From the IMG/VR virus record IMGVR_UViG_3300032050_000011: 64,000 nucleotides of DNA, one strand, 5' to 3'. Below the pieces are notes generated by a model. That model was not told where the DNA came from. It saw nothing but the letters and a program-made list of their open reading frames with translations, and searched no databases. Within the stretch, counting starts at the first letter, position 1. Each line of letters opens with the position of its first letter. The translations under genes and the position numbers were made by a program. Shown here in pieces: positions 1,214 through 51,301 of this stretch. The stretch is from a virus.

Positions 1214-3895
1214 TTAATTGTTTATTTTAATATATTTATTACTTTCAGTCGGTAGATATAAGATATTATTAGATTTAATAAATAAATAAGCTTCACCGGC
1301 ATTAGGCACTCCCTCTGAAATATCATCATCTAAATAAGCCCCTATTACTATATGTTCACCATCTATAGCTACCGAATTGCCAAATCTATCAGTATTACTT
1401 TCATTAGGCGAATTCAGAGTCTTGATCCATCCCCAGTTATTGGGTCCACCCTGATTTTTTTTAAATATGTAGACTTCACCGGCTCTACTAATAGCATCAG
1501 TAGAGCCACCGTCATCGTAAGCTCCCACTACTATATAGTCACCATCTATAGCTACTGAATTGCCAAAAAAATCATCTATGTCTTCATCTGGCGAATTAAG
1601 TATCTTAATTAAGCCCCAGTTATCAGGTCCACCTTGATCTTTTTTGAATATGTAGACTTCACCAGCTCTACTAATAGCATCAGCAGTACCATCATCTAAA
1701 TAAGCCCCTATTACTATATGTTCACCATCTATAGCTACTGAATTGCCAAATCTATCAGTATTACTTTCATTAGGCGAATTTAGAGTCTTAATCCATCCCC
1801 AGTTATTGGGTCCACCCTGATTTTTTTTAAATACATAGGCTTCACCAGCGCTACTTATAGCATCAGTAGAGCCACCATCATCGTAAGCTCCTACTACCAT
1901 ATAGTCATCATCTATAGCCACTGACCAGCCAAAATTATCACTTGCATCTTCATTGGAAGAATTAAGTGTTTTTATTAAACCCCAATTGTCAGTTCCGCCT
2001 TGATCTTTATAAAATACATAGGCTTCACCAGCGCTACTTATAGCATCAGTAGATCCGTCATCTTGAGGTGCCCCTACTACTATATAGTTACCGCTAATAG
2101 CTACTGACGAGCCAAAATAATCACTTGTATCTTCATTGGAAGAGTTAAGCGTCTTAATTAAACCCCAGTTGTCAACTCCGCCCTGATCTTTTTTGTAGAC
2201 ATATGCTTCACCAGCACCGCCTATAGCATTAGTGGAACCTCCTTCGTAAGGTGCTCCTACTACAATATAGCTGCCACTAATGGCTACTGAAAAGCCAAAA
2301 TCACCAAGTGGCAAAGTAAGAGTCTTTATCAGTCCCCAGTTGTTAACTCCGCCAAAATCTTTTTTATATATATAGACATCTCCGTCAAGAGAAAGACTAC
2401 CAGCAGACCCATCATCCGACGGAGATCCTATTACCATATAATCACCATCTATAGCTACTGAATAACCAAACCAAGCACCTATAGCTGGCATTGGTGAATT
2501 TAAGATGCGTTCTGGTATCGATGAAATGTCTGGAATAAGCACGCTTTCGCTAGCATTTCCGCTATTAAGTAAATCACTGCCGGCTATGCTCCTTCCATCC
2601 ATGGGCACCCAGTTAATTCCGTCCGGTCTAGATGATTGAAAATCTAAATAATTAAGATAAGATACTCTTATATCGCCCAACTCATTTTCTTGTGGTGGGA
2701 TAATTGTATCTATATTTACAGAATTAGCACTAAAAGTTAAATTTATATTTGTGCCAGCTACTAGTGTTTTAAATTCTAGATTTACTCCAGTCTTCTGTTT
2801 GAATATGCCGGCTCCAGTTCCTACGTTAGATGCTGTATTAATTTCACCATTTATTGCACTTAAAGTTACAGCATCTGCACTAGAAGTTAGCACTAGATTT
2901 CCAACTGGTGTTAGTGTTTTAAATTCTAGGTTTACTCCAGTCTTCTGTTTGAATATGCCAGCTCCAGTTCCTACGTTAGATGCTGTATTAGCTTCGCCAT
3001 ATGATGTGCTTATTTCTATGGAATTAGTGCCTGGAGTAATAACTGCGCTGCCACTTGCTACAAGCGACTTAAACTCTAGATCAACGCCAGTTTTCTGCTT
3101 AAATACACCGGCTCCAGTCCCTACATTAGACGCAGTATTAGTTTCGCCTGGCGGTGTGCTTATGGTAATGCTGTCTGTACCTGGAGTTAGTGTTATGTTT
3201 GAACCGGCTACTAGAGTTTTAAACTCTAGATCAACACCAGTTTTCTGCTTAAATATGCCTTCACCACCACCTACATTAGACGCAGTATTAGCTTCGCCAG
3301 CAACTATACCACCGCCAGCTCTCCAGTCAAACCTAAATATATTGGAATTCTCTATTATGTTAGATGCTGAGCCAGCAGTTTTAAATTTACCATCAGCATG
3401 AGTACATTGCAGTACTGCGTAGCCTATAGATATTCCGCTTGGAATAAAGAATCCGCCTGCGTCTGGTAGGCTAGCTTCAGAGGCAGCCTCACTTGAAAAC
3501 AATGCAAGAATATTGCCAGCAGTAGTAAGAGTAAACACTGCTATCCTATAATAGCCAACCGTATTAGACGTAGGCCATGTTATCTCAAAGTCTGATGTAT
3601 TAGATACTGTTTGAGCCTGGAAATCTATCCATAGAGAAGCTAGATCAGTAAATATTTGACCTTGAATAGGCGGATGAACTTTGGTGACACCATCTGGACC
3701 TAGTATGGCAGAATCTGAGAAATTTATCTTTGAGTCTGGCGTAGGAAAAGAGGCTGATAGTTTTAGTGGAAAATCTAGGTCTGTGTTGATCTTGCTTATT
3801 ATCTGGCCTAGATGAGAGCCCTGAGTTAAGCCTAGCTGCTTAAAATTTTGTGTTTTGGCTTCTATCTGTCTAAGATCTTGCTTTGTAAACGGCAT
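1214..3895 (-). CDS. Tail fibre/adhesin with GExNTASNVG repeats, tail-collar-like segment and 7-bladed FG-GAP beta-propeller
   Basis: Four GExNTASNVG..G.FKQKTGV.LEFK repeats and seven FG.SVAI.G...VGA..DD...GEAY repeats. A collar-like GDIR...WVPMDGRSIAGSDL segment and a C-terminal NKYIKIN flank the propeller. Confidence 0.8.
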   Translation of the reverse strand: MPFTKQDLRQIEAKTQNFKQLGLTQGSHLGQIISKINTDLDFPLKLSASFPTPDSKINFSDSAILGPDGVTKVHPPIQGQIFTDLASLWIDFQAQTVSNTSDFEITWPTSNTVGYYRIAVFTLTTAGNILALFSSEAASEASLPDAGGFFIPSGISIGYAVLQCTHADGKFKTAGSASNIIENSNIFRFDWRAGGGIVAGEANTASNVGGGEGIFKQKTGVDLEFKTLVAGSNITLTPGTDSITISTPPGETNTASNVGTGAGVFKQKTGVDLEFKSLVASGSAVITPGTNSIEISTSYGEANTASNVGTGAGIFKQKTGVNLEFKTLTPVGNLVLTSSADAVTLSAINGEINTASNVGTGAGIFKQKTGVNLEFKTLVAGTNINLTFSANSVNIDTIIPPQENELGDIRVSYLNYLDFQSSRPDGINWVPMDGRSIAGSDLLNSGNASESVLIPDISSIPERILNSPMPAIGAWFGYSVAIDGDYMVIGSPSDDGSAGSLSLDGDVYIYKKDFGGVNNWGLIKTLTLPLGDFGFSVAISGSYIVVGAPYEGGSTNAIGGAGEAYVYKKDQGGVDNWGLIKTLNSSNEDTSDYFGSSVAISGNYIVVGAPQDDGSTDAISSAGEAYVFYKDQGGTDNWGLIKTLNSSNEDASDNFGWSVAIDDDYMVVGAYDDGGSTDAISSAGEAYVFKKNQGGPNNWGWIKTLNSPNESNTDRFGNSVAIDGEHIVIGAYLDDGTADAISRAGEVYIFKKDQGGPDNWGLIKILNSPDEDIDDFFGNSVAIDGDYIVVGAYDDGGSTDAISRAGEVYIFKKNQGGPNNWGWIKTLNSPNESNTDRFGNSVAIDGEHIVIGAYLDDDISEGVPNAGEAYLFIKSNNILYLPTESNKYIKINN
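1974..2062. repeat. 89-bp exact repeat shared with 22065..22153 (FG-GAP blade in the giant baseplate gene)
   Basis: attaaaccccaattgtcagttccgcc...agtagatccgtcatc is identical at both loci. Confidence 0.9.
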
Positions 3896-11648: not shown

Positions 11649-14600
11649 TTAAATTATATACCAGTTTGATCCATCGCTCACTACGCTTACAGATTCATAT
11701 TGAATAGCTATATCTAATGAGCTAGAGAATATATCTATGCCATCTAGAGTATCGCCAGAAACGCCCTTTATCCTAACAATATTTCCGCCATCTATCTTCT
11801 TAATGTCAAAGCGTTTGCCAGAGTTTAGACTCGCAGAAGGAAGCGTTATATCGACGTTTAAGCCTAAGTTATTTACTAAAATAACATCATTAGAAGAAAG
11901 CGGATCATAGTTTGTGCCATTTATTGTTACTACATTGAGCAGGGCACCCGTAGGAGCAGAACTTATAACTAGTGAATCTGAAGTCTGAGATATAGACATA
12001 CCGGCGCCAGCAACTAGTGTTCTAAAGCGCAGATCTTCTCCAACTTTAGACTGAAAAACAGCAGCGCCTAGGCCAACGTTAGATGCAGTATTTATTTCGC
12101 CATAAGCGGACTCTGAACCACCAGAACCAATAGTATGGTTGTCAATTCTGAATAGCAGTACGTCACTAAGATTAAGATCTTGAAGCGTAACTATCTGTTT
12201 AGACATCGCTCCAGCTGATCCTACTTCAAGCCAGTCTTGGCCAACTGTTAGATATTGGCCATTTAAGAATAGTTCTAGTTGACCTTCGCCAACCGTGTAA
12301 CTTTTAACCTGATTGCTATTCTTAGAATCAAGCGGAAGATTCAGAGTAGTTCCAGATGCTATCAGCGATGTGACATTTATTTTTTCTTCATAGGCTTGCT
12401 CAGGAGTAGAGAGCATGACCTCATAGATTTTTTGATCTAGTTTTTTAATGGCTGCCTCAAGCAAGTCACCGTCAGAAACTGTATGCAGCGCTGAGCCAGA
12501 TCCATCTATCTCTATAAAGACACCAAAACCACTGCCTACGTTAAAGTTTTCAGCGTCTGTACAGAAGCCAGCAAGTGTATTAGTCACAGTTATGGTGCCA
12601 TTAAAATTATTTATGACGCTAAAATCTAATGACGCAGTAGCTACTATAGCATTGGCTGTTTTTTGTGCAACAGTTGCAGCTGTATCAGCGCTAGATATAT
12701 TTACAGTTATGCCTATTCTGCCTATTACTAGTGGATTTACACCTGTGCTATCTTTATTAAACCAGACATAGTATTTGTTTAAGTCAAGGCCTGAGTTTAT
12801 CAGGAAGTATTGATTGCTGGTTATGTTGGAGGCTGCTGGAAGCGTTATTTCAGTAACTTCGGCTACTACATCTGCTATTATTGATTCATATTCTCTTACA
12901 GGAGTCTTATCCCAGAGCATTACAGAGCCGGTGCTTCCTCTTATGGCGAATACAAATATGTTCTCACTTAACGGCAACTGATCATTGTCTACGACTATTA
13001 GTGATGCTAGACTGCCTATTGCACTATTGCTATTTCTGTTTATAGAGAAATAGGCCGTTTGATTTGCCTGTAGACTAACTGTGCTTGTTAGCGTCAATTC
13101 TGTCTTATAACCAGTAGATGGTTGAATAACTACAAGCTTAGGTGTATAGCCTGTTTTTGCAAAAACAGCGATATCTTGATAAGATCCATTTGGATTACTA
13201 ACTATAGCATGAACATTCTGAAGTTCAAAAGTTAGATTTCTATCTTGAATTCTATCTGCCATCATGGCAGTTAATTTTGAAGCTCTTTCCGTTAGACTAT
13301 CTGCTGAACTTGAATTATAATTTACAAAACCATCTAGTGTATTGTAGTTTAGTTCTGTAGCATAGACAGGTTTCATCATCGCTGAATTATCCATGCCTAT
13401 AAATGACATTATATTTTGAGAATCTACTTTACCTATCTCTTTACTTTCGCCTTGCTCAATTTTAGTAGGACCAAGATCTGCTCTAACATACATCTCAATA
13501 GACGTAGCCTTTGGAAAACCAGAGGTGTAATTTTCAGCAACTATTGGACCAGCTATAGGAAACGTGAACTGAGTGGCAGTTTTAGGAAACACCTTGAACT
13601 CGCCATTGAAGTTACCGCTGCCTGCTATGAATACGTTGCCGTCTACATCTAGGCCATGATTAGCAGATTCAAGTGAAAAACCATATGCAGTAGAGTTAGC
13701 AGAAGTTGTTGCTGTAGCGTAATAAGCAGGTCTGGATAGCTCGTCTAAAAAAGGTCCACCAGTTTTTGATATGAAAAATATATCGCTGCTTTCAACCTCT
13801 ACTTGATATTCACCATTAAAATTACTAGTTGCTAGTATTTTTATTCTCTGTTTGTCAGATAAGCCGTGTGCTATCTTTGTACATTTAGCTCGCTCTCCGT
13901 CATGATCTGTAATATCTATTAGTAATTGAGTGCAAGACAAATTGGATACATTGAGTACTCTGTCTGATCTCGATGCTAACCAACAAAGATTTCCGCCTGC
14001 CTCATAAAGAACAGGGTCTGTTCTATCAGCAACTTGAACTTCAGAGGCTAAAAATTGACCCTTAGTATATATGCCCTGAGAAGAGCCGCTTGCTCCAGAG
14101 TATGCTGCACTTAGTCTGATAGATTTAGCCTGAGATGGCGTAGTAGTTCCTCCACCTAGACTTATAGAATCATAAAATTCTTCTACTCTTAGATATAGAT
14201 TATCTCCGTCGCCAGATCTCTTTATCCAGTCACCCTTAGATAGATTTTCAAAGTAGCCAAGATCTCCGTTAACATATGGCAACCCATTAAACCAGTCTAG
14301 TGGCACAGTACCGCTGTTTGCCTGCAGATCTCTCTCATGCTGTACAAACATTACCTGATTATTTAATAGTGTCTTGCTGCCAGATCGTATGATTATATCT
14401 TTAAGATCAGTCATAGATTGAAGAACAATGTCTTCAGTCCAACTAAGTTGACCAGGTGTACTGTCAGAATTTTCCCAGGTTCCTTTAGATCTTATTGAAG
14501 TAGCTAGAGCATCTTTAAATACGTTTATCAAGCTGTATGTGGATGTGTCCTCATACCAATATGTACTACCGCTTAATTCTAGTAGTCTTGTCATGACTAC

Positions 14601-15386: not shown

Positions 15387-17516
15387 TTATCCAGGATCTA
15401 TGCCACTAGAATAAACATCAATCGTTGAATAATATTGCGCCGGATATCTAACTATAAAGTTTAAGAATATACCGACTGACTTTACTTTTTTCATTAGATC
15501 TTTCAATATCTCTGTAGCAACAGATGGATCTGTTATATATGGCGCTCTCTCTGATCCAAGCCCTTGAAATTGTATACCGCCACGTCTTCTTATCATGGTC
15601 ACAGATGATCCGTAGTCATGATCTTTTTTAAATATATAGGCTGGGTCAAGCGCTATTATTGAACTATTTGGCTTATAAAAGTATCTTACAGGACCTTCTT
15701 GCCTCTCTGTGCCAAAATCAAATATAAGTCTACCCTCTGCGTCAGGTATGCTATTTGGCCCTATCTCTATGTTCTTTTTAGTAGTGCCTGCTTTTATACT
15801 AGTTATAAGCGAGGCGGTAAGTGAAGATAGTACGAAGTCAGCGGACTCATCCCACAGATAAGGTCCAGGAGTACGCTCTTGCATGATAGATGACCTAAGC
15901 ATAACTACGCCACCAATTTCTGAGCTTGCCGCGTCCTCCATCCTTACAGTTCCACCGCTAGAATTTCTAGCACCGCTCGAACCAGCAAATGAATATGCCT
16001 GAAACTGAGTATTACTTAGTATGTTCTTAATTTGCCATGTCCCATTGGTAGAAGGACCGCTTCCAGCACCCTGAACTGCATTTTCTATTATCACATACTT
16101 ACCTACTGAATAGTTGTGGGGTGTAGCTGTAGTTACTGTTATTAGATTTGCAGAATTCCTATTAGCCGAAGATAAATTAAACTGATTTAGTGAAGAAATT
16201 GTTGGCAATTCTGGAGTTATGCCTTGCAGCAGATTTCCAACCCTAGAACTATAGGTGTATATTGGCATATCACTTACTAGTCTGCTGTTGAAATTAAATT
16301 CGTTTACGTCTCCCGTATCTGGAAAAAGCGTCTGTATTTCATTCTGAGGTATGAAGTAGAACTGTGCTCCAGTTTCTGGAAATTTATCTGGATTTACTAG
16401 TGTTAGGTTCGCAGAAGAACTACTGAATGAGATAACTTCTGAAACTACTCCGTTTATATGGCAAGCACCTTTTCTATTTCGTCTAACTACTGGTGGAGAT
16501 GACGGAACCTCAACTACTATTTCTCCAGGCGAAACTTCCCAGACTATAGCTCGTCTCTCTTTAAGAAAGACATTGTTTTTTACCGGTGTCATAAATCTCA
16601 CTATAGAAGACGAAGATGTGGTAAAAGTTTCTGGCGTGGCAAATAGGTTATTAAATTTAATATAGTTAGCGACAGCATCTAGCTCTGTTATTAAAAAACT
16701 ACCAGCGTTGCCAGCTCTGTCTATTATAACTACATCGCCTTCTTCCAGCTGATCTATGCCAGGATACTCACCATTGCCTGTATATGTCATTGTGACAGAA
16801 TCGCCTATTTTCGTTATCTGCCATTCCGTAGCAGTGCCAAATCCTGCCTCAGTATTAAAACCATCAAATTGAAAAGCTATATTTGCTCTTCCGCCAGTTA
16901 TAGCGACTGATCCTCTTGCTCCAACAGTGTTAGTGAATATTCTTATGGACACTTTTTTAGTTATAGCATTCTCAAAAGCTATAGCATAAGAACCAGAGGC
17001 TTGTCTATTTATTACAGAGACTACTTCTATGGCTGATGCGCTGCCTATATTGGTAAATTCACTCTCATTGAATACTATTCGTTCTTTAGTGTACGAGTCT
17101 ATCTCGTACTCTAGCTCCCAGCCATCTTTAAGACTAAAAGGCTCATTCAGTATCGATGATGTATAAGATGTTGTTGACTCTTTGTTATAGAAAATATCTA
17201 CAAGATCATCAAATATAGCCTTTACTTGCTTTGGATTATAAGCCATTACTGGAATAAACCGCCTAAAGGTAGGATCATCCATGCCAATAAATCTAGGTCT
17301 CTGAACCATATTTGCAGCACCAAGTCTATCTAGATATGGCCTGCTTGCTGTTTTTACAAAAAACTGATTTCTTACAGCCTCGATAAGCTCCAGAGTCTCC
17401 TGATCTGATTCTCCAACGGTACCTATGAGTGCCTTCCAAACAGTGTTTTGCTGCGTGTTAAAAAGCGCAGGCATTTGATCATGTAAACTATCGATCATGT
17501 TCTTGTTTGCGGGCAT
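15387..17516 (-). CDS. Baseplate wedge protein (gp7/gpI-like)
   Basis: Directly follows the baseplate-J-like gene. N-terminal TA...YLDRLG...RP...DD..FR and C-terminal VKSVGIF resemble wedge subunits. Confidence 0.6.
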   Translation of the reverse strand: MPANKNMIDSLHDQMPALFNTQQNTVWKALIGTVGESDQETLELIEAVRNQFFVKTASRPYLDRLGAANMVQRPRFIGMDDPTFRRFIPVMAYNPKQVKAIFDDLVDIFYNKESTTSYTSSILNEPFSLKDGWELEYEIDSYTKERIVFNESEFTNIGSASAIEVVSVINRQASGSYAIAFENAITKKVSIRIFTNTVGARGSVAITGGRANIAFQFDGFNTEAGFGTATEWQITKIGDSVTMTYTGNGEYPGIDQLEEGDVVIIDRAGNAGSFLITELDAVANYIKFNNLFATPETFTTSSSSIVRFMTPVKNNVFLKERRAIVWEVSPGEIVVEVPSSPPVVRRNRKGACHINGVVSEVISFSSSSANLTLVNPDKFPETGAQFYFIPQNEIQTLFPDTGDVNEFNFNSRLVSDMPIYTYSSRVGNLLQGITPELPTISSLNQFNLSSANRNSANLITVTTATPHNYSVGKYVIIENAVQGAGSGPSTNGTWQIKNILSNTQFQAYSFAGSSGARNSSGGTVRMEDAASSEIGGVVMLRSSIMQERTPGPYLWDESADFVLSSLTASLITSIKAGTTKKNIEIGPNSIPDAEGRLIFDFGTERQEGPVRYFYKPNSSIIALDPAYIFKKDHDYGSSVTMIRRRGGIQFQGLGSERAPYITDPSVATEILKDLMKKVKSVGIFLNFIVRYPAQYYSTIDVYSSGIDPG

Positions 17517-17524
17517 ATTTAACC

Positions 17525-20500
17525 TTAGGTAATACTAATATCAGAAGGCTGAATAAAAGCTTTTTCGCCCTCAGATATAGATATTCTTTCGTTGTTTGGT
17601 GTAGGCGAAACAAATGTTACCGCTTCAACACCTACTATATTCTTAATTCTTACAATTATGTCAGAGAGTATCACGTCTTCGCCTACTCCAAGATTAGACA
17701 CATAGCTTATTATTGCTGAAGCTATCTCGTCGGTTATCTCACTTAAGTTAACACCATCTTGTGTTGTTATGTCTACAGATATAGATACTTTAACAGGTAT
17801 AGGCGGAAGAACTTCTATCGCACTTCCAACTGCTTTTCTGCCAGGAAAAGAGGACGAATCAGGGTCAAATCCATCTACAATTCTTTGAACTTTTCTGAGT
17901 AGTCCTGTATAGTATTTATAACCGTCTATACCAACTACTATCGAGTTATCATAGCCAATTTTACCTACACTAGATATAAAGCTAGAGTTGTTCTCATTCC
18001 ATTTATAATCGCGATCTCCTCCAGAAAGATATACTATACGTCTATTTTCGTTTAGCGGATCTATGGCTGTATGATAGACTTCTCTTATTGACGTAAACTT
18101 ATTGTCATCATTTTCAGTTATTAAGAATTTACTATTTGCTAAGCCAGCACTAACATCTATTTCAGAAAGTCCACTAGAATTATTTACTCTAATATACTGT
18201 CTACCAGATAAGCCATCTGTTCCTAGATCCTGGATATCAAAGTTTCCTGAATTAGAAAGACTAAACCAGCTATCGCTTGTATTTTCACTAATGAATAAGT
18301 TGTCACTAACTCTTGCTGAGTCGCCTTCTAGTATTCTAATATCAGATGCATTATTTAAGTAAACGCCTTTGCCTATATCTGAGTTTTGATCTAGTGCATG
18401 AGAAGGAGAGTTTCCGCTGTCTCCAGTGTAGCTACTACTTAGTGTAACTATTGTAGCATCTTTAGCAAGCGAAGAATTAAATCCACTTACTTGAACCAGC
18501 AGTGTGTCTTCGTCTGTTGTTTTCTTAACCCAGTCACCAATACTCAAATTACTAAAAGTTCCAGGTATGCCAATTACGATATTAGAATTAGATGTCCATG
18601 TTGGCTCTAGGCTATAATTATTAAAGGCAACAAATGTGTCCAGCTTTTCTAGCGCCTGCATATTTCTATAGACAATAGAATCGTTGTCTAGCGCCAGTAT
18701 TCTAAACGCACCGTTATTTGCAGAGCCAAAGCTAGATCCACTTACTAACAGTAAGTCGTCTACTGCTGCACCACAACTTAAAAATTTAGGCGAGTCACCA
18801 TCAACCAAAGAAAGCCTATTCATACCGTTATGCCCAAGTGACTCAATCTTGTAGCGAGTTCTAGTTTGCCCAGGTTTGAGAATTAGACCTGCAGGAGAAA
18901 TACTTAGCGCATTTGAATTAGTTGAGGCGTACGTAAATTTATTTGAGTCTACTATGCTTAGAACTATTCCAGTATTTGGACTCGCACTGCTTGGAATATC
19001 TATGGCTGTAAAAATATCGCCAACGTCTAGACCATGAGGATTTTCTGTAGTTGCAGTTGCTATATTCGAAGCTATAGCTATAGACTGAATCTTATTAGGC
19101 GCTGAGTGTGCTAGATGCCATTCTAGTGCAGGTGCTGCAGATATTATAATCTCGTTTCCACCTATCTCTGTAGCAGACATAGCTTTTCCATCTGGATTTT
19201 CTACGTCTAGATATTTGGCAGATTGATTTACTGCCACTATAGGAAGTCCACCAATCACATTAGAGCCAGTATTTTTACAGAAATTACCTGTACTCCAGCC
19301 GTCTACTGCTATACCACTTTCAGAAAATAATGTTAATAAGCTGCCCTCGGTTACCTGAGAAAGTGTAGCTCCAGGAGTTTGACCTATGCTAAAGTCACTA
19401 GATATACCATTAATAGAGAGTGCTATGCCTAGTTTGGCTATTATCTGATTAGGTGTATCTGTACTTAATACGTCTACTCTAACAATATTATCTGCAGATA
19501 TAGGCACAGTAGCATCAGCTACGCCATTAGTCGTCACACCAAATATAAATCCAGGTGAAGGCGATCCATTTGAGCCTGCAGTTATCGGGCCATTTTGCGA
19601 GCTAGTTGCTGTTATAGAAGCTAGAGCAAAACCATCATCAGAACCAGCAGTTACTACACTAAAATTAAAATTCGTAGATGGAGTACCGTCAGCACCTGCA
19701 GCTACTAAACCATTGTCTGCATTATTTACAGTTATAGTTGCGCCGCTTATAGTCTCGCCTGTTCCAGGAGAAATCAGAGAAAAGTTAAAACCAGTAGCAT
19801 CAGCACCAGCACCGTCTACTCCAGCAGTTATTAAACCAACTTGTGCATTGGTTACAGTTATAGTAGCAGAATTAACAGTTGTTCCACTGCCAGAGCCAGC
19901 AGTATTAAATATGTAAGCTTTAGCATTACCGCCGTCTGCGCCAGTCGTTGCTATAAAATTACTAGAAATGGAAACACCGGAGCCAAAACTGGTTCCAACG
20001 TTTTCAAAAGGGTTATTTAATGTAGAAAGTAATCCCCAGTTATCAACTCCGCCTTGATCTTTATAGAATACATACGCTTCACCAGCGTCAACAGTTGTAT
20101 CAGTAGAACCATCATCACTATATGCGCCTACTATTATGTAGTTGCCACTGATAGCGGCTGACCAGCCAAATAAATCGCCGGCATCTGGGTTAGGCGATGT
20201 TAACGTTTTAATCAAGCCCCAATTTTCAGTTCCGCCGTAATTTTTCTTAAAAATATGCAGATATTCATATGGAGTTTCAAGTGCTATGATATAGTCGCCA
20301 CTAATATTTACTGAATAGCCAAAATTACCATTTGGTGGCCAAGTAGAAAAATTTGGAGCAGTGATAGTTTTGACTAATCCCCAGTTATCAACTCCGCCCT
20401 GGTCTTTCTTATACACAATAATAGTTGAATTAATAATTGAAGATAAGTTAGATGGCTTTAATACTAAATAATCACCACTTAAATGTAAAGGCGCGCCACT

Positions 20501-23500
20501 ATTGTTGCCAGCAACCTCAAATCCAGGAGTAAAACTCTTGATTAAGCTCCAGCTCTCTAGTCCCGTATCTTTCTTAAATATATATACTTCGCCAGCATCA
20601 TTGACTGTATCAGTAAAACCATCGTCACCTGCAGCATGTACCGCGATATAGTTTCCGCTTATTGCAACATAGGTACCAAATCGATCGTACAAGTCTTCAT
20701 CTGGTGAATTAAGTGTAGCAGTAAGTCCCCAGTTATCAATTCCGCCCTGATCTTTTTTGTAGACGTAGGCTTCACCAGCAGCACTGATAGCATTAGTAGA
20801 ACCGCCGTCCTCAAAAGCACCGACGACTAGATAGTCTCCATCTGCATCAATAATAATACTATTGAATCCGCTAAAAGGCAGCGTCTTGATTAGTCCCCAG
20901 TTATTTAATCCACCTTGATTTTTCTTATGTATGAAAACTGATGATAGCAGGCCATTAGATCCGACAGCGAACATGTAATCGCCTGATATTTTTGTATATA
21001 TACAATTGTAACCGCTAGGAGTAGCTGCTGCTTTAATATAAGAGCCAGGGGTTATTACTGGTGCAGTTGTAGTTGTTACTATTGCGCTAGCAAAAGCTGA
21101 ATCATTGTCAATAATATTCGCCGTCTTAGTAGCCACTTCTTCAAAATCATCATTGGTGCTTATATTAATCTCTCGCGACCTAGTAGTGGTTCCTACCGCA
21201 GGTTCAACTGTTCCGCTGTTATTGTTGTCATACCAGAATTTAACAGTATCTCCGTTACCAGCTTCTAGTACAAAATAAGAACCATTAAGTGAGTTAGAGA
21301 CGTCTGGTTGACAGCCTATTGTCTGTATAGCGATATTGCCAGGAACCGTCGTGGTTGTCACTGTTGCACTAGCAAAAGCTGAATCATTATCGATCGCATC
21401 AGCTGTTTTAGTAGCTACTGCTAGAACATCGTCATCTGTATCTACATTAATCTCTACTGATCTATCGGAAGGAACAGCAGGAACACCCGCTACGCCAATA
21501 GTATCTATTGACAAAATAAAATTCGTAGGTGTAGTGCCGTCAACTCCAGCATTAACTGGACCATCAGCAGAATTAGTCACTGTTATTGTCGCAGGACTTA
21601 GACCGTCAGGTGTTCCAGTCAAAACCACACTAAATGTAAAATTAGTAGCAGGAGTACCGTCAGTGCCAATCGCTACCGGTCCAGAGTCAGCATTTGCTAA
21701 ATCTATAGACGCTGGAGTTGGAGTTGCAAGATTGATACTATATATATATGCTTCACCAGCGTCATTTAAAGTTTCAGTAGAGCCGTCATCAGAAGATGCT
21801 CCAACCACTATATTGTCGCCGTCTACAGCCACTTGACTTCCAAATCTATCTCCGTTCTCATTAGGTGAGTTAAGTTGTTTTAAGAAACCCCAGTTATCAG
21901 TCCCGCCTTGATTTTTATAGAATAAGTAAGCCTCACCAGCGCTACTAACGCCATCAGCAATACCTCTATCGAAAGGTGCACCTACTACTATATAGTTACC
22001 GCTAATAGCTACTGACCAGCCAAAATAATCATTTGCATCTTCATTGGAAGAATTAAGCGTCTTAATTAAACCCCAATTGTCAGTTCCGCCTTGATCTTTA
22101 TAAAATACATAGGCTTCACCAGCGCTACTTATAGCATCAGTAGATCCGTCATCGCCATATGCACCTACTACTATATAGTCACCACTAATAGCTACTGAAT
22201 AACCAAATTGATCTGCAGTATCTTCATTGTCGGAATTAAGTATCTTAATTAAGCCCCAGTTATCAACACCACCCTGATCTTTTTTGAAGACATAAACTTC
22301 ACCAGCGTCAATAATAGCGTCTATGGATCCGTCATCAACGAATGCCCCTACTGCTATGTAATCACCACTAATAGCTACTGACCAACCAAATTGATCTCCA
22401 GTATCTTCATTGTCGGAATTAAGTATCTTAATTAAGCCCCAGTTATCAACACCACCCTGATCTTTTTTGTAGACATAGGCTTCACCAGCACTACCAATAG
22501 CATCAGCAGTACCATGATCTGTTCTAGCCCCTACTACTATATAATTACCGTCTATAGCTACTGAGTTACCAAATGTGTCTCCATCATCTTCATTGTCGGA
22601 ATTAAGTGTCTTAATTAAGCCCCAGTTATCGGCTCCACCCTGATCTTTTTTATAGACATAGGCTTCACCAGTACCAATAGTACCAGTAGAACCTTCATCG
22701 CCATATGCACCTACTACTATATAGTCACCATCTATAGCGACTGAATAGCCGAATGCGTCATCTGTGTCCTCATTGGGTGAATTAAGTGTCTTTATTAAAC
22801 CCCAGTTGTTTGCTCCACCTTGATTTCTTTTAAAAATATAAGCTTCACCAGCAGTAGTGATAGTGTCAGTAGAGCCGTCATCTTGAGGTGCTCCTACCAC
22901 TGCGTAGTCTCCGCTGATAGCTACTGAGTTACCAAAAGCATCTGCTAAAGATTGATTAGAGGAATTAAGTTGCGCAACGAACCCTGTATTAGAAATTTCA
23001 GGCGTTATTAGCACACTTGCAAAAGCTATATCAGATGATATTGCTGTAGCTGTATGTGTAGCTACTGCATCAGAATCATCATTTGTAGATATGGAATTGA
23101 TCTCTACTGACCTAGTAGTGGTTCCTACTGCAGGCTCAGCTGTTCCGCTGTTATTATTGTCATACCAGAATTTAACAGTATCTCCGTTACCAGCTTCTAG
23201 TACAAAATAAGAACCATTAAGTGAGTTGGAGATATCTGGTTGCAGCTGAATTCTTTGTATAGAAGGCACCCCAGATCCTGGCATTATTACGCCTGGTGTT
23301 ACTATTGCACTAGCAAAAGCTGAATCATTATCGATCGCATTAGCTGTTTTAGCAGCAACCTGATTCACATCATCGTTCGTGTCTATATTAATCTCTAGCG
23401 ATCTAGTAGTAGTACCTACTGCTGGTTCAGCTGCTCCGGCATTATTATTGTCATACCAGAATTTAACTGTATCTCCGTTACCAGCTTCTAGTACAAAATA

Positions 23501-26500
23501 AGAAGTATCCAGTGAATTAGATACATCTGGCTGACATTCGATAAGCTGTATAGACGGTGATCCTGGTATGCCTAAACCAGGCTCAGTTGTGCCAGCATCA
23601 TTGTTATCATACCAGAATTTAACCACGTCGCCGTTTCCAGCATTAAGTGTAAAGTAAGAACCATCTAGTGAATTAGCTATGTCTGGCTCACAATCGATAT
23701 CATGAACAGTAGGAGACCCGGTAATAATTCCTCCAGGTGTCACTGCCGCGCTAGCAAAAGCTAGATCGCTGTCTATTGCTGCTGCTGTTTTAACGGCTAC
23801 TTCATTTACGTCGTCATCTGTGTCTATGTTAATCTCTACCGACCTAGTAGTAGTACCTACTGCTGGCTCTGTTGCTCCGGCGTTATTATTGTCATACCAG
23901 AATTTAACAGTATCTCCGTTTGGAGTTTGTAATATAAAGTAAGAAGCATTAAGTGAGTTTGCTACATCTGGCTGACAACCAACTGTCTGCACAGATGGGG
24001 TTCCGCCTATCAGCATAACAGGAGGCGTTAGATTACCGTCTACAGAAAACCATGCGATCCAGCTAGAATCAGCACTGTTTATAAATCTAAGATAATCTGC
24101 ATGATCAGGTACTCCAGAAGAAGTTACTCTGAAAACTAGATTGTCATCAGAGTCTCCAGCCTGAGTTACTTCTTGATGAATTTCGCTATTTGATGTTAAT
24201 GCACCTATTGCATTTCGCATTTGCGGATTGTAGTCTACGGATCCTTCGTCTGTATCTGACAATATGAGATATGAACCTGAATCATCATGAGTCCATCGCC
24301 AGACAATTCCAGGAGTAGGATAGCTAATTGGATCTAGCGAGTGAGCATCTACTATATTTATCTTAGTATACTGATTAAAATTAGTATTCTTAGAATTATA
24401 CATGTACTCGCAAGTGCTGTCATTCTTCTTAACAACATCTATACTGTCATTTTGACCTAGTCTGCTTATGCGCTCAACCCCATAGTCATTTTCAAGTTGA
24501 ACATGGTGTCCTGGCTGAAGTGTATTTGGCGAAGCTGGTATTTTAAACTGCAAGAAATTATCAGAATCTTCAACTATCTGAGAGCTTCCTATTAATTTAA
24601 ATTTTGCGTTATTTGCACTACCACCCACTATTTCTATAGCTCCACTAGATCCAAGCTGCTGTGATTTTATCTGTATTGAACTGCTGTCATTGGCAACAGA
24701 AACTCTAGACACTATATTTAGCTGTGAAAGCGCTCTATGTGTCATATGATGTGCTAGATTATCTAGAGTTGATGGTATAAGTTTAAATTTTTCACCAGTA
24801 GTTCCATCTAGATTTATTGCAGTATCTAGCTCGTATAGTGGCGTTACGCCTACTAGAACTAGTGGTTTTTTAAGTTGAAAATTAGGATTAGCATTTTGAA
24901 AACTTGATATCCAGTTCTTTGAGTCCCAGAAAGATATAAAATCATGATAATTGCTAGAAGGATTAGGATTATGATAGTAGGCTACTTCATTGATAGCGAC
25001 GCCAGTTATATCTCTAGTGGCCTTAATCAATGTGCCAGATGTGTGCTCTACTGCTTCAAGCATAGGATTTGTATTTATTTTAGCAACTATGTCTGCAATA
25101 GTATTCTGTTTTATAGAGAAAATTTCTAGCTTATTTACTAGATTTATAGTTTCATAGCTGTCAGCAACTCCAGCTATATCTAGTAAAAATGTAAAACCTG
25201 TAGGCACTACTCCGTCTTGGCCTGCAGTAACTGGGCCATTGACTGCATCTACTATAGATATGGTGGCAGAAGTTCCAGAGGCATTTGTCACAGAAGCAAA
25301 GGCTGGGTCTCCTGCCATTATGATGGCAGTTTTTGTGGCGACATCTATATCTGTGTCATCGTTAAGGATGTCGATCTCCCAGCTTCTAGTTGTAGCTATT
25401 GAAGCAGGCTCTAGTGTACCGCTGTTGTTATTGTCATACCAGAATTTAACCGTATCGCCATTTGCTGCGCTAACTATAAAATAGCTTCCATTTAGACTTC
25501 CACTAGAGTCTGCAACGCATACTATCTCTTGAACTGAAGCTGAACCTACTGCTGTTGCTACTCCGTCTATGCTATAAAAATCTAGTGTTTTAGCGATATC
25601 ATCCTTTTGAAGAATGCTGAAAGTTCCGCAATTTGCTGTTGAAAATCCGCTTGTTTCACCTATAGATATGACATCACCTATATTTATAGAATTAACACTA
25701 GCAGTAGTAGGAAATTTTAACCTAAGTATGCTAGAGCCTAAGTCTGTCAGTGTGAACTGGTCTCCTGGAGAGATGTCTGTATTTATTGCGCTGTTTGAAC
25801 CAAATACATATCTAAAAGAAGTTACGCCTGGAATTGTAGATTGCACAAGCGTGCTCTCGCTATCGGCAGTACTAGGGTAGTCGATTCCAAAAGTATATTG
25901 TTCGCCTATTGGACCATAGTCGCTAGCTCTTATTATCATGGCTGCGCCATTATCATAATACCAGTTTCTAGCTCTAAACCATATATTGTAGTCGTTAAAG
26001 TTAGTGCTCCCCTGAGATGGCAAAGTGCCCCAGATATCTGCTTTACCGAAATCAATACCAGACTCGTTATCTATGTCATCTGCAGAGAATGCTATGCTAG
26101 TAGGTATGAAATTTGAAAGCTGCGAACCGCTATTGATCTGACCAGTTCTTGAGAGTGGCATATCTATGGTTTTAGCTATAGGATCATTGTCTAGTATCAT
26201 TACGATATTATCTTCGGATGAAAGTTCTAGACCTTTAACTGCACTATACTCATCTCCAGCAGTGTAATCCATTAGAGTTCTAGGCGTAGAGTTTCTTGTG
26301 CCTATTTGACTTGAGCTTAATATGGACCTAATATTTCTTGATTGGCCCTTATTTTGACCACTTGTTATTTCTATGAAATCGTCATAGCTTATATCATTTA
26401 AAAAATCCGTAGCAGTGTCAGTTAATGTTTCAGAATAAAAACCAGAGCCGTCAATGCTAGGCTGTGAGTTTGCAGTAAGTGAACCTCTTATTTCGCTATA

Positions 26501-29170
26501 AACGTGTCTATCTAGCCAAACATTATCTGATTCTGGCTCAGATCGTTTAAACATTGTTAAGTAACTTTTGCTTGGAATAACATTCGCTATATGCGACTCA
26601 GTTCCAAGCTGAGTGCCTTGTGCAGTATTAAAAACTCTAGATGCTGCACCTACAGAAACAGGTATAGCAATGCTTCCACTTGTTTCAGTAGCTGAAGTAA
26701 TTTTTATATAGCTTGTTCTAAAAGTTTTTGCTTCTACGCCTTTAATTAAACTGTTAATAGATGCAACTACTTCATTTATGCTAGCAGAGACTGGAGCTGA
26801 CAGCGAAGAAGCTCTCCATATCTGCGGATACTTATCGGAATAGAATGCCTGAATATCAAGCGCATCCAATATTGCATAAGATCCGCCAGAAACCATGTTT
26901 ACATTTTTTACATCTAGGTAGCTGTCTACTCCAGCATATAAATGTTCGCCTTTTGCATGTACCTTAAATAGACCGCTAGAAGCGTCATCTACCCAGCTGC
27001 CTGATCCAGGCGGATCAATTAGTGGATTTGCTCTAGTTTCGCCTCTGCTAACTATATAGATATAGTCACCAGCTTGTACATTGCTAAACGAAGATATGGC
27101 ACTAGACATTATTCTCATAATGCTGTTGCCTTGATCTAGTAGAGTTATAGTAGACGCAATTGGTAGACTAAGCGATCTTGGAACAACTCTTGCAGCATCT
27201 GCTACAATGACCATCTCTGCGGGTCTATTACTAGAATCGTTAGATAAATTAAATATTCCGTTAGATGCAGCGCTGGATACTATGAATCCCTTTGAGTCAC
27301 TTGATCCGGCTGTGATAGTATCTCCAGCCTCTATATCTACTTTAATTTGTAGATTACCATTCTGCCTATTAAGGATAAAATCAGAATTTTGACCACTAGA
27401 CTCTAGTGTCTGAGAGCTAAACATGTTTTCTAGATATGATCCGCCAACTATCTTAATAGAAGACTCTTCGCCACCTTTATTTGATGTAACAACAAGCCTT
27501 CCAGCAGCAGTTGCCGTAGCAGTCAATCCTGCAAACTTATAGTTAAATACACGAACCCAGTCTTGAAGAGTTACAGAAAAAAAGCTACTGGCGCCAAAAT
27601 CTAATAGTGTAAAACTACGATCTTGAGGCGGAGTATCGTCCACAGAAATTATTAAGTTACCGCCAGTAGATATTCCCCATGTAGAAAATTCTACGGTCGC
27701 TACAGAAGCAGACAGCTCTTTTTCTCTTAGCAGTTTATTATTTTTATATAGTTTTATATTTGAAAATTCATTTAATGGAAATTTTAGCGATGAGTTAGCA
27801 TCGAATCTCCCACCATCTCCTGTGACTTTAATTGTCTCAGCTGTATGATCTGTTGGATACAGTAGAAGTCTAGACGAATTCTCTGTCAATCTACACTTAA
27901 AGCTGACTGATTTAGTGTTTATTGTTGTAGCTAGATCATAGATACTCACAGAAGAAATATTGCTAAAATCAGAATCATAAAGAACGATAGATTCCTCTAG
28001 TCCATCTACTTCAACTTTAAGAGTCATAGAGTCTGCTAATAGATATGGCGCTTCTGCAAGATTTACTACCTGAGCTCTAGGTAGAGGATAGTTAGCGAGC
28101 TGTAAAAATTCTTCGCTGCCATTAGCTGAGGCCAACAATAGATCTACAGACTGTCCTTTATAGCTTGGTTGAAAACCTTGACCATCATCTATATAGATAA
28201 TGCTTGGGTCTGCTATTGATGCTGGCTCTGTTATATTGGCAGATTCAACCTGCTTGCCATCTGTTTCCTCAGAAACACCGTATATAGCTGATAATATAGC
28301 TTGACGAGTACCTCTCGATAAAGAGTTCGAATATGCTTTTATTCTATCTCTAAAAGATTCATCTGATTCTGCATCTCTGCCATTAGTAAAAGCAATAGTA
28401 TTTGTTACAGCAGCGCCCAAAAATGGCGGCGTCGAAAATCTTGTTATGGTGTTTATCCCAGCATTTCCAGATGTGCCAGCGTTTACTGCAACAACGGGAA
28501 CTGAGTCCACAAATGTTTCACCAGCTGGAATTACCGCATTTCTTAGCGTTACATAGCTGATATCTGGACTAACGTTATTTGCAGGTATTCTTACTAGCGT
28601 ATTAGCTGGTATCTGCCTATCAGCTGTCCCTTGGCCATCTATAACGCTGTCAGTAAGAAGATGATCTTTCTGAAGCGAGGCTCCTAGAGTTATAGTATAA
28701 AAACTACCATTGTCTGTAATGGATGTATATGGAATTGGACCTTCAAAATTCTGAGTACCTCTACCAATATAGAGATTTCCAGTGAGATTCCACTCAGATG
28801 CATTTGCCACGTACAGAGTAGTAGCTCCTCTTATAGGGGCAGGCTTTATTGAGTATAATCTGGTGCTTCTCTTTGTGATATTTGTATCGGTAATCTTGAT
28901 TTGACCTGAAGCTCTAGCCGCGACGTTTCTAGTAAGGCCATAATTAGAGCCATAAGAGTCTAGATCGTTGTTTCTAACGGCGTCTATGTTCATTAGCTCT
29001 AGAACATTCAGTATGGCAACATTGTTTTCAAAGTCATTAGAGGCAGCCGCTTCAAGTAGAGTTAGCAGCGCGGATCCGGTATTGACGTCATTTATCGCAG
29101 TATCGGCAATGATTTTTCTTACCATTGCTCCCAGAATTTGATTATAGCTTTTAATCTCTACGTTAGCCAT
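17525..29170 (-). CDS. Giant baseplate J/gp6-like wedge protein with nested repeat domains and two FG-GAP propellers
   Basis: Baseplate-J-type N-terminus (LD.YG...GLTR..A..ASG; NG.DAESDESFRDRI...SRGT..AI) and C-terminus (I.SYVSNLGVGEDVILSDI...I.GV). The internal expansion is described in the findings. Confidence 0.8.
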   Translation of the reverse strand: MANVEIKSYNQILGAMVRKIIADTAINDVNTGSALLTLLEAAASNDFENNVAILNVLELMNIDAVRNNDLDSYGSNYGLTRNVAARASGQIKITDTNITKRSTRLYSIKPAPIRGATTLYVANASEWNLTGNLYIGRGTQNFEGPIPYTSITDNGSFYTITLGASLQKDHLLTDSVIDGQGTADRQIPANTLVRIPANNVSPDISYVTLRNAVIPAGETFVDSVPVVAVNAGTSGNAGINTITRFSTPPFLGAAVTNTIAFTNGRDAESDESFRDRIKAYSNSLSRGTRQAILSAIYGVSEETDGKQVESANITEPASIADPSIIYIDDGQGFQPSYKGQSVDLLLASANGSEEFLQLANYPLPRAQVVNLAEAPYLLADSMTLKVEVDGLEESIVLYDSDFSNISSVSIYDLATTINTKSVSFKCRLTENSSRLLLYPTDHTAETIKVTGDGGRFDANSSLKFPLNEFSNIKLYKNNKLLREKELSASVATVEFSTWGISTGGNLIISVDDTPPQDRSFTLLDFGASSFFSVTLQDWVRVFNYKFAGLTATATAAGRLVVTSNKGGEESSIKIVGGSYLENMFSSQTLESSGQNSDFILNRQNGNLQIKVDIEAGDTITAGSSDSKGFIVSSAASNGIFNLSNDSSNRPAEMVIVADAARVVPRSLSLPIASTITLLDQGNSIMRIMSSAISSFSNVQAGDYIYIVSRGETRANPLIDPPGSGSWVDDASSGLFKVHAKGEHLYAGVDSYLDVKNVNMVSGGSYAILDALDIQAFYSDKYPQIWRASSLSAPVSASINEVVASINSLIKGVEAKTFRTSYIKITSATETSGSIAIPVSVGAASRVFNTAQGTQLGTESHIANVIPSKSYLTMFKRSEPESDNVWLDRHVYSEIRGSLTANSQPSIDGSGFYSETLTDTATDFLNDISYDDFIEITSGQNKGQSRNIRSILSSSQIGTRNSTPRTLMDYTAGDEYSAVKGLELSSEDNIVMILDNDPIAKTIDMPLSRTGQINSGSQLSNFIPTSIAFSADDIDNESGIDFGKADIWGTLPSQGSTNFNDYNIWFRARNWYYDNGAAMIIRASDYGPIGEQYTFGIDYPSTADSESTLVQSTIPGVTSFRYVFGSNSAINTDISPGDQFTLTDLGSSILRLKFPTTASVNSINIGDVISIGETSGFSTANCGTFSILQKDDIAKTLDFYSIDGVATAVGSASVQEIVCVADSSGSLNGSYFIVSAANGDTVKFWYDNNNSGTLEPASIATTRSWEIDILNDDTDIDVATKTAIIMAGDPAFASVTNASGTSATISIVDAVNGPVTAGQDGVVPTGFTFLLDIAGVADSYETINLVNKLEIFSIKQNTIADIVAKINTNPMLEAVEHTSGTLIKATRDITGVAINEVAYYHNPNPSSNYHDFISFWDSKNWISSFQNANPNFQLKKPLVLVGVTPLYELDTAINLDGTTGEKFKLIPSTLDNLAHHMTHRALSQLNIVSRVSVANDSSSIQIKSQQLGSSGAIEIVGGSANNAKFKLIGSSQIVEDSDNFLQFKIPASPNTLQPGHHVQLENDYGVERISRLGQNDSIDVVKKNDSTCEYMYNSKNTNFNQYTKINIVDAHSLDPISYPTPGIVWRWTHDDSGSYLILSDTDEGSVDYNPQMRNAIGALTSNSEIHQEVTQAGDSDDNLVFRVTSSGVPDHADYLRFINSADSSWIAWFSVDGNLTPPVMLIGGTPSVQTVGCQPDVANSLNASYFILQTPNGDTVKFWYDNNNAGATEPAVGTTTRSVEINIDTDDDVNEVAVKTAAAIDSDLAFASAAVTPGGIITGSPTVHDIDCEPDIANSLDGSYFTLNAGNGDVVKFWYDNNDAGTTEPGLGIPGSPSIQLIECQPDVSNSLDTSYFVLEAGNGDTVKFWYDNNNAGAAEPAVGTTTRSLEINIDTNDDVNQVAAKTANAIDNDSAFASAIVTPGVIMPGSGVPSIQRIQLQPDISNSLNGSYFVLEAGNGDTVKFWYDNNNSGTAEPAVGTTTRSVEINSISTNDDSDAVATHTATAISSDIAFASVLITPEISNTGFVAQLNSSNQSLADAFGNSVAISGDYAVVGAPQDDGSTDTITTAGEAYIFKRNQGGANNWGLIKTLNSPNEDTDDAFGYSVAIDGDYIVVGAYGDEGSTGTIGTGEAYVYKKDQGGADNWGLIKTLNSDNEDDGDTFGNSVAIDGNYIVVGARTDHGTADAIGSAGEAYVYKKDQGGVDNWGLIKILNSDNEDTGDQFGWSVAISGDYIAVGAFVDDGSIDAIIDAGEVYVFKKDQGGVDNWGLIKILNSDNEDTADQFGYSVAISGDYIVVGAYGDDGSTDAISSAGEAYVFYKDQGGTDNWGLIKTLNSSNEDANDYFGWSVAISGNYIVVGAPFDRGIADGVSSAGEAYLFYKNQGGTDNWGFLKQLNSPNENGDRFGSQVAVDGDNIVVGASSDDGSTETLNDAGEAYIYSINLATPTPASIDLANADSGPVAIGTDGTPATNFTFSVVLTGTPDGLSPATITVTNSADGPVNAGVDGTTPTNFILSIDTIGVAGVPAVPSDRSVEINVDTDDDVLAVATKTADAIDNDSAFASATVTTTTVPGNIAIQTIGCQPDVSNSLNGSYFVLEAGNGDTVKFWYDNNNSGTVEPAVGTTTRSREINISTNDDFEEVATKTANIIDNDSAFASAIVTTTTAPVITPGSYIKAAATPSGYNCIYTKISGDYMFAVGSNGLLSSVFIHKKNQGGLNNWGLIKTLPFSGFNSIIIDADGDYLVVGAFEDGGSTNAISAAGEAYVYKKDQGGIDNWGLTATLNSPDEDLYDRFGTYVAISGNYIAVHAAGDDGFTDTVNDAGEVYIFKKDTGLESWSLIKSFTPGFEVAGNNSGAPLHLSGDYLVLKPSNLSSIINSTIIVYKKDQGGVDNWGLVKTITAPNFSTWPPNGNFGYSVNISGDYIIALETPYEYLHIFKKNYGGTENWGLIKTLTSPNPDAGDLFGWSAAISGNYIIVGAYSDDGSTDTTVDAGEAYVFYKDQGGVDNWGLLSTLNNPFENVGTSFGSGVSISSNFIATTGADGGNAKAYIFNTAGSGSGTTVNSATITVTNAQVGLITAGVDGAGADATGFNFSLISPGTGETISGATITVNNADNGLVAAGADGTPSTNFNFSVVTAGSDDGFALASITATSSQNGPITAGSNGSPSPGFIFGVTTNGVADATVPISADNIVRVDVLSTDTPNQIIAKLGIALSINGISSDFSIGQTPGATLSQVTEGSLLTLFSESGIAVDGWSTGNFCKNTGSNVIGGLPIVAVNQSAKYLDVENPDGKAMSATEIGGNEIIISAAPALEWHLAHSAPNKIQSIAIASNIATATTENPHGLDVGDIFTAIDIPSSASPNTGIVLSIVDSNKFTYASTNSNALSISPAGLILKPGQTRTRYKIESLGHNGMNRLSLVDGDSPKFLSCGAAVDDLLLVSGSSFGSANNGAFRILALDNDSIVYRNMQALEKLDTFVAFNNYSLEPTWTSNSNIVIGIPGTFSNLSIGDWVKKTTDEDTLLVQVSGFNSSLAKDATIVTLSSSYTGDSGNSPSHALDQNSDIGKGVYLNNASDIRILEGDSARVSDNLFISENTSDSWFSLSNSGNFDIQDLGTDGLSGRQYIRVNNSSGLSEIDVSAGLANSKFLITENDDNKFTSIREVYHTAIDPLNENRRIVYLSGGDRDYKWNENNSSFISSVGKIGYDNSIVVGIDGYKYYTGLLRKVQRIVDGFDPDSSSFPGRKAVGSAIEVLPPIPVKVSISVDITTQDGVNLSEITDEIASAIISYVSNLGVGEDVILSDIIVRIKNIVGVEAVTFVSPTPNNERISISEGEKAFIQPSDISIT

Positions 29171-50702: not shown

Positions 50703-51008
50703 TTAGTGATCATGCGGATATTTGTCTGATCCAGACTCATCATGTAAAGATAACCAGCTATTAACATGATCGTCGAATTTTTCTTGATGTTTTGGATTGC
50801 TTAGCTGAACATGTGCAGCAGGGTGATCTATTGAAGCATATGCATGTCCGGCATCTTTATGATACTTAATATGTTTTGGTTTAACTTGATTATTGAAATT
50901 AGCTATTGCTCTTTGGAAATGAGCTTCGCTTTTTTGCAATATCTCTTCTATCTGCTCATCGGCCTTCTTTTGAAGTATCCACTTGTCCCAGTCTGGAAAT
51001 TCTTTCAC
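50703..51008 (-). CDS. Hypothetical His-rich protein with an ILQKS site
   Basis: GTG start with AGGAG SD; first gene of the leftward operon. Confidence 0.6.
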   Translation of the reverse strand: MKEFPDWDKWILQKKADEQIEEILQKSEAHFQRAIANFNNQVKPKHIKYHKDAGHAYASIDHPAAHVQLSNPKHQEKFDDHVNSWLSLHDESGSDKYPHDH

Positions 51009-51054
51009 GTGATGCTCCTGTTCATTTAAGTAGCTCAGTTTTTCTATAGTCTAT

Positions 51055-51063
51055 ATTCTACCA
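51055..51063 (-). promoter_or_regulatory. Extended -10 box (TGG-TAGAAT)
   Basis: In the divergent intergenic region, 46 nt upstream of 51008. Confidence 0.45.
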
Positions 51064-51175
51064 TCTCATCGAGTCAATCTAGTATAATATTCTCACGCAT
51101 TTACCTGATCCGCGAAGCGGTTAGGGGGCCCCTGCCAGTTAGGTTACAACTACTTAACTCACCTAAGAGACCACT

Positions 51176-51301
51176 ATGACTCAGTATCTATTTACCGAAG
51201 ATCAGATTCATCGCATGCTCATACTCTATGCGCTCTTGAATCTAAACATAGACTGGCGTGCGATCAAATACGGAGAGCTGCTATGCCACAACGACTACTA
51301 A
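51176..51301 (+). CDS. 41-aa micro-protein (motif variant ALLNLNI)
   Basis: Hand-translated; first of a chain of overlapping small ORFs. Confidence 0.5.
   Translation: MTQYLFTEDQIHRMLILYALLNLNIDWRAIKYGELLCHNDY

Follow-up and report, generated by a model that had tools for sequence, protein, structure and literature searches.

A single baseplate protein, encoded in the 64,000-nucleotide stretch of viral DNA recorded in IMG/VR as IMGVR_UViG_3300032050_000011 (this whole stretch is called the window below), very probably carries a nested, forked arm made from one polypeptide chain. The protein, of 3881 amino acids (aa), is identified by profile matches as a Baseplate_J/BW2 wedge protein of a contractile-tailed phage with a genome of ~166 kb. 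It contains a lineage-specific insertion of 1506 aa (aa 1719-3224), which lies in the A0|B0 loop of a host domain, domain 0, and which consists of split copies of a small domain, the module, with segments A, B and C, together with two FG-GAP propellers, P1 and P2. It is probable that the insertion is an accessory forked surface arm on the wedge protein, with weak, multivalent and reversible adhesion as its likely role; this overall judgement weights the architecture as the core claim. If the nested, forked architecture is granted, an adhesion role is moderately favoured.

The uninterrupted domain of ~125 aa described in a sequence-only reading of this DNA was found as an intact module, U. Local alignment with U as the query recovered exactly five more A segments (scores 134-160), five B segments (67-80) and five C segments (61-88); the next matches scored at most 41, and the maxima in shuffled proteins were 40-51. 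Hidden Markov models (HMMs) of the family gave the same 5/5/5 count, in the order AB A AB AB (440 aa) C C B AB (405 aa) C C C, which agrees with the count and order claimed earlier. Both long inserts contain seven blade repeats, as had been proposed. The flanking halves, A0 and B0, show homology with the module (hhalign 97% and 83%), in line with the suggestion that the block sits between halves of a degenerate sixth copy. Junctions between segments are all short, at roughly 7-20 residues. The parts are as follows.

25151..25549, minus strand: module U, intact (A-B-C, aa 1208-1340), from which the five copies probably derive (local alignment, AlphaFold2 (AF2), tree)
24149..24286, minus strand: putative C0, first part of domain 0, probably a circularly permuted C (weak homology)
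24017..24148, minus strand: A0, the half of host domain 0 that precedes the insertion (alignment to homologues, hhalign)
19499..24016, minus strand: the 1506-aa insertion in the A0|B0 loop (homologue comparison)
23735..24007, minus strand: A1-B1, outgoing part of domain 1 (local alignment, HMM)
23573..23719, minus strand: A2, first third of the fork domain, domain 2 (local alignment, HMM)
23297..23563, minus strand: A3-B3 (local alignment, HMM, AF2 segment)
23003..23272, minus strand: A4-B4 (local alignment, HMM, AF2 segment)
21725..22993, minus strand: seven-bladed FG-GAP_2 propeller P1, within the B|C hairpin of domain 4 (Pfam, blade repeats, model)
21608..21718, minus strand: C4, closing domain 4 (local alignment, parse, AF2 segment)
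21485..21598, minus strand: C3, closing domain 3 (local alignment, parse, AF2 with the confidence given below)
21356..21475, minus strand: B2, middle third of domain 2 (local alignment, HMM, parse)
21071..21340, minus strand: A5-B5 (local alignment, HMM)
19895..21055, minus strand: propeller P2, seven more divergent FG-GAP blades (blade repeats)
19760..19873, minus strand: C5 (local alignment, parse)
19637..19750, minus strand: C2 (local alignment, parse)
19514..19627, minus strand: C1 (local alignment, parse)
19373..19498, minus strand: B0, second half of host domain 0 (alignment to homologues, hhalign)

Enumeration of the possible pairings, with circular permutants also allowed, left a single non-crossing parse, 0(1(2[3(4(P1))][5(P2)])), the same balanced brackets that had been read from the segment order. 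The Y shape follows from this parse. The chain would run outward laying down the A-B parts, fold each propeller, and return to give pairs of C strands in reverse order. Domains 0, 1 and 2 would form the stalk and domain 2 its fork, where the A|B loop would hold branch 3-4-P1 and the B|C hairpin branch 5-P2. Only 0.015% of free shuffles can be parsed by chance. When the four intact AB units are held together, the share that parses is 2.2% in strict order and 31% if circular permutants are allowed. Taken by itself, the segment order thus suggests nesting without deciding the matter, and the weight lies with the comparative evidence.

That evidence came from 77 full-length homologues, mostly of 2360-2510 aa. 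Domain 0 is whole in 63 of these, with 5-11 residues (about 9) between A0 and B0 as against 1510 in the 3881-aa protein; a direct join of this kind had been predicted for homologues lacking the expansion. In another 12, domain 0 is wholly missing, with short joins. The position occupied by U holds one module (n=55), two modules (n=11), none (n=4) or a larger insert (n=4). Since domain 0 or U can be missing with short joins, the termini of the module are adjacent. Where two modules are present at the U position, the second copy interrupts the other one, following its first strand, and so is nested. The four larger inserts (P0072-P0075, aa about 1230-1640) have ice-binding DUF3494 domains at different loops of the module. 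From these sequence comparisons, the module within the BW2 family is optional, has adjacent termini, nests, and carries binding cargo. Domain 0 is itself probably an optional insert, in the form of a C-A-B circular permutant: the unit lost with it begins ~45 aa before A0 and ends directly after B0, while the homology of the putative C0 is weak (hhalign only 1.3%, E value 0.039). The nested order claimed in the sequence-only reading stands, but its outermost brackets were missed, both that of domain 0 and that of the 3400-aa middle that splits the BW2 profile. Other expanded versions were searched for and this lineage alone turned up, which is weak evidence of uniqueness.

The AF2 prediction for U is a single alpha/beta domain of ~125 aa with seven strands and a helix (predicted local distance difference test score (pLDDT) 95.5, predicted template modelling score (pTM) 0.89), of which the C segment supplies the last two strands (96-101 and 120-125). 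The best fold matches are the sheath 8kee (Z score 8.7, root-mean-square deviation (rmsd) 2.4 Å, 89 aligned residues) and KP1 9f4b (Z 8.3); T4 gp11 (1el6) scores 7.8, the outer domains of FliC and FliD score 5-7.5, and T7-type nozzle inserts also match (overall Z 5-8.7). Matches cover residues 3-125 as one domain, and a Z score near 8 is only modestly above background. The top ten rows are phage-tail, capsid-accessory or flagellar proteins throughout, and the sheath outer domains that match best are those of 8kee, 9cb9 and 9khy. Weak ferredoxin-like matches suggest that the termini and the B|C hairpin are on opposite sides, so that branch 5-P2 would be axial and branch 3-4-P1 more lateral.

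These data bear on the proposal that the AB units and C runs fold as independent beads, or that they are a largely disordered, functionless repeat expansion. The proposal would fit with the moderate AF2 confidence for C3 and with an expansion known from one lineage only, but the C segment comprises two strands and a loop of a single-domain fold, the segment counts balance exactly, the reading frame stays intact across 4.5 kb, and a further copy differs at only 6/1505 residues. Independent beads or disorder are thus very improbable.

Further support for nesting comes from the wider module family. The module has no consistent match in Pfam, where no family covers it; 3/71 module members match PHROG 165 (sheath), and PDB sheaths match at E 0.1-0.6. 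A profile search yielded about 2,490 representatives (clusters at 50% identity), of which the top 150 were surveyed for nesting, with equal-count, non-tandem proteins treated as testable. All 22 testable proteins (22/22) parse without crossing, 21 of them in strict A-B-C order, against expected values of 3.3 and 0.3; the 22 include kin, about nine coming from one AABCBC family, so the count overstates independence. Examples of the bracket orders are AABCBC, AAABCBCBC, AAAABCBCBCBC, ABABCC and AABABCCBC. The C-to-A junction is too short for a first strand in 150/184 cases, which indicates that most apparent tandems are nested as well. The two loops that domain 2 uses also take inserts in other proteins, A|B in the AABCBC proteins and B|C in P0162 and P0105, and forks occur in P0141 and P0165, with two sub-stalks within one loop. 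No other protein with one domain using two loops was noticed among the family members surveyed, although there was no systematic search. Nesting of the arm is well supported by the direct A0-B0 join in relatives, the unique parse, the two strands contributed by C, and the nesting of this module, at the same loops, in many unrelated proteins.

Several members of the family are of interest in their own right. P0141 (L012:5446-19002) and P0165 are very large phage-like proteins with a nest 0(1(2),3(4)) near the C-terminus and no Pfam match. P0092 (L013:3460-8880) is a giant flagellin of 1806 aa in which FG-GAP repeats are apparently split around nine module copies; a stack of first-strand repeats is followed by nine remainders, and the nest appears nine deep. 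A lead from giant-flagellin DE domains (PMC6248924) treats discontinuous folding but shows no link to the module, and was set aside. P0104 (1157 aa) is a tail sheath protein with about five nested module copies, and in P0110 (L008:3-4826) nested copies in C-A-B circularly permuted form flank a 403-aa insert of unknown type. A second intact copy was also found in the window, in a neighbouring open reading frame (ORF).

12468..12881, minus strand: second intact, divergent module copy in a 1228-aa ORF, 11649-15335 (local alignment, HMM)

This ORF has a weak match to PHROG 165 (sheath), and a gene of similar size stands at the same position in relatives.

Part of the arm was modelled directly. The AF2 model of aa 1870-2564 contains a propeller, C4 at pLDDT 88-94, and C3 at pLDDT 62-71 with a strand; this is consistent with nesting, short of proof. 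The matches listed in fold searches with the 695-aa model were taken up by propellers and are silent on the pairing of modules. A complex prediction with three fragments (A2-A3-B3, C3-B2-A5-B5 and C5-C2) scored 0.62 against 0.43 for one control, which gives no verdict, and it was not used as evidence. Several observations count against a nested adhesive arm. The AB4-C4 pairing in the model was imposed by the supplied alignment, confidence for C3 is only moderate, domain 3 has no assigned strand 5, and the model spans aa 1870-2564 only. With segments assigned as nested, distances between C segments fail to mirror those of A or B (rank 33-99 of 120), although the distances for A and B conflict as well and the comparison is uninformative. 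None of the relatives found has the arm, which is therefore not essential. Finally, the integrin calcium hairpin motif DxD/NxDGxxD is absent from both propellers (aa 2059-3095).

The mirroring result, with no preference for the nested assignment, is among the points that could be explained by swapped complementation, in which C strands complete the AB parts of other copies or of a neighbouring BW2 chain and so form a cross-linked lattice or skirt instead of separate Y-shaped arms. AB parts that are 60-80% identical could be interchangeable, and BW2 is normally paired. Swapping is nevertheless improbable given the uniformly short junctions, the closed propellers that bring the chain back to its own domain, and the bracket order obeyed by unrelated proteins of the family.

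The propellers bear on the function of a nested, forked arm. P1 and P2 match PF14312 (E 2e-100), and the model of P1 is an integrin-alpha-like propeller (Z 35.1, rmsd 3.2 Å, 355 aligned residues). P2 is about 50% identical to P1. A related propeller is encoded elsewhere in the window.

1262..2524, minus strand: third FG-GAP propeller, 65% identical to P1, at the C-terminus of an 893-aa fibre-like ORF, 1214-3895 (Pfam, blade repeats)

This ORF encodes five short fibre-like repeats, a collar-like segment and the C-terminal propeller; no close full-length relatives of it were seen outside the phage. Together with fibre-like genes at 4002-5522 and 5522-6793, it contradicts the earlier statement that the phage has no separate fibre genes. 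The other best matches of the fibre propeller are 34-45% identical, many of them with type IX secretion system (T9SS) or other surface-protein domains. The propeller family consists largely of bacterial secreted or surface proteins and includes viral proteins too; the fibre propeller turned up in none of the viral contigs scanned for it.

Accessory multivalent adhesion is the most likely role of the arm, because of the tip position of the propellers, the occurrence of a propeller in a fibre-like protein, and the ice-binding domains that relatives carry. Receptor binding by P1 and P2 is suggested by their position, their family and the cargo of relatives. The propellers would bind a cell-surface or matrix polymer weakly, multivalently and reversibly, alongside ordinary fibres. 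BW2 is usually present as two chains per wedge, or 12 per baseplate (T4, pyocin, type VI secretion system). On that stoichiometry, the phage baseplate would be surrounded by as many as 12 arms, bearing 24 propellers.

The main rival accepts a nested, forked arm but assigns it a structural role, with the propellers bracing wedges, sheath or fibres, or stabilising the virion. Seven-bladed propellers are common protein-docking platforms, which counts for this explanation, as does the lack of a recognised calcium or sugar motif in P1 and P2. Sheath outer domains of the same fold have also been proposed to stabilise tails as well as adhere (PMC9230969). However, the same baseplate is built without the insertion in 63 relatives, a propeller also caps the fibre-like protein, and a known surface-binding domain, DUF3494, occurs on the same module in relatives. 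A structural arm is therefore unlikely, while less so than either beads or swapped strands.

The origin of the expansion can be traced in outline. In the tree, the five AB parts group as a clade (100/96) that falls within the U modules of the BW2 family, and this clade is weakly sister to the U of the same phage (93/66, from few columns and a rough bootstrap). The A, B and C segments give discordant distances. The simplest history, judged from the sequences, would be capture of a bacterial-type propeller, its copying within the genome, and serial internal duplication of the module. In this lineage, a copy of U probably entered the A|B loop of domain 0 and gave rise to further copies in its own loops, and two FG-GAP propellers related to that of the phage's own fibre-like gene were added.

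The assignment of the host protein rests on its two ends, encoded by an uninterrupted ORF.

17525..29170, minus strand: 3881-aa Baseplate_J-like (BW2) wedge protein (profile matches; same protein in two assemblies)
28181..29170, minus strand: N-terminal half of the BW2 core, aa 1-330 (PHROG 6 positions 161-282 at aa 183-326)
17528..17953, minus strand: C-terminal half of the BW2 core, aa 3740-3881 (PHROG 6 positions 278-406)

The N-terminal helical and wing region matches Baseplate_J (PF04865) with 60 bits (Pfam cut-off 21.1), PHROG 6 at E 3e-30 and the PDB entry 8kea, gp31, at E 9e-6. The C-terminal wedge domains match PHROG 6 at E 2e-12. Because the PHROG 6 profile leaves off at position 282 (aa 326) and picks up again at 278 (aa 3740), the entire middle of ~3400 aa is an insert in BW2. 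The gene stands between a BW1-like gene (29179-30777, PHROG 120/975) and another baseplate gene (15387-17516), the latter with a weak match to PHROG 1160 (E 3e-4); a sheath gene is found at 42893-45073. The closest cultured relative is the 1925-aa J-like protein of Myxococcus phage Mx1, with 30% identity over aa 7-826 and no detectable module copy. The longest contig bearing the gene is 166 kb. An assembly artefact is unlikely to be the source of the expansion, because an identical protein occurs on contigs of two separate assemblies (ENA ERZ27247979 and JGI 3300008120) and the repeat copies are only 55-93% identical at the DNA level. In a variant assembly, on a 165,836-base contig (P0001, P0091), the gene is split near aa 850-872 into products of 850 aa and 3009 aa.

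Parallels exist for most elements of the proposed arm. Other BW2/Baseplate_J proteins (PF04865, PHROG 6; A-1(L) gp31, Milano gp29, Mx1) are alike in N- and C-terminal core and gene position; the 3881-aa protein differs by the ~3400 aa inserted at one profile position. CBA120 and G7C have branched multi-tailspike complexes, with several heads per baseplate branch, made of multi-subunit trimeric enzymes. The arm resembles these in having several heads, but it is a single chain with non-enzymatic propellers. In the flagellin of Geovibrio thiophilus, cryo-electron microscopy revealed a domain, D5, that is a duplicate of D4 within a D4 loop, D4 being related to FliD D2 (PMC11532411); in FliD, D3 is a loop insertion in D2 (PMC8533109). 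The module matches FliC and FliD outer domains at Z 5-7.5, a middling fold match that falls short of proof of homology, and it shares self-nesting with the Geovibrio flagellin. The Geovibrio nest, however, is linear and has two levels, whereas the phage arm has five self-copies up to four deep, one domain using two loops, propeller tips and a baseplate host. Multi-domain tail sheath proteins, the best fold matches of the module, form outer domains from the outgoing and returning chain, proposed to serve adhesion or stability (PMC9230969), and the sheath P0104 holds nested copies. They are sheath and not wedge proteins, and the part of that source available contains no sheath branching or propeller tips (PMC9230969).

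The contrast drawn with multi-subunit branched phage adhesins was too strong, since single-chain ones on split domains are known in bacteria (PMC12077191). The RTX adhesin AhLap of Aeromonas is one chain with several ligand-binding domains that emerge from split immunoglobulin (Ig)-like domains, and it also has a vWFA domain, with an insert of its own, inside a beta-roll (PMC12077191). AhLap is a bacterial protein of Ig fold whose heads bud singly from a linear tandem stalk, whereas the phage stalk is itself nested, discontinuous and forked. Out-and-back domains, self-insertion of the FliD-D2 type and single-chain multi-headed adhesins are each already known; in the literature searched, no description was found of a multi-level self-nested, forked, propeller-tipped wedge arm, nor of the module family.

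If the arm is an adhesin, the phage gains a branched multivalent organ by duplication within a core baseplate gene and needs no new gene for a fibre, adaptor or chaperone. Such heads would escape host-range predictors limited to fibre or spike genes. The bracket grammar can be read from sequence, and the module has no Pfam entry yet recurs in sheaths, baseplates and a giant flagellin. It provides a tractable system for the evolution and folding of deeply nested discontinuous domains, and a natural scaffold for the design of branched single-chain proteins. A broader proposal, tentative and with the balance slightly against it, is that the module is a widespread, uncatalogued self-nesting adaptor with at least four usable loops, from which single-chain stalks and trees with interchangeable heads are built in baseplates, sheaths and flagellins; the 3881-aa protein would then be the first two-loop fork with two receptor-binding propellers on a wedge.

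Two minor observations concern the rest of the protein and the window. The conserved 1900-aa arm of BW2 (17990-28140 outside the expansion) has by eye several small beta-barrel-like repeats, and may itself be nested. At ~51000-52000, the sign of the GC skew flips where the minus-strand structural module gives way to short plus-strand ORFs.

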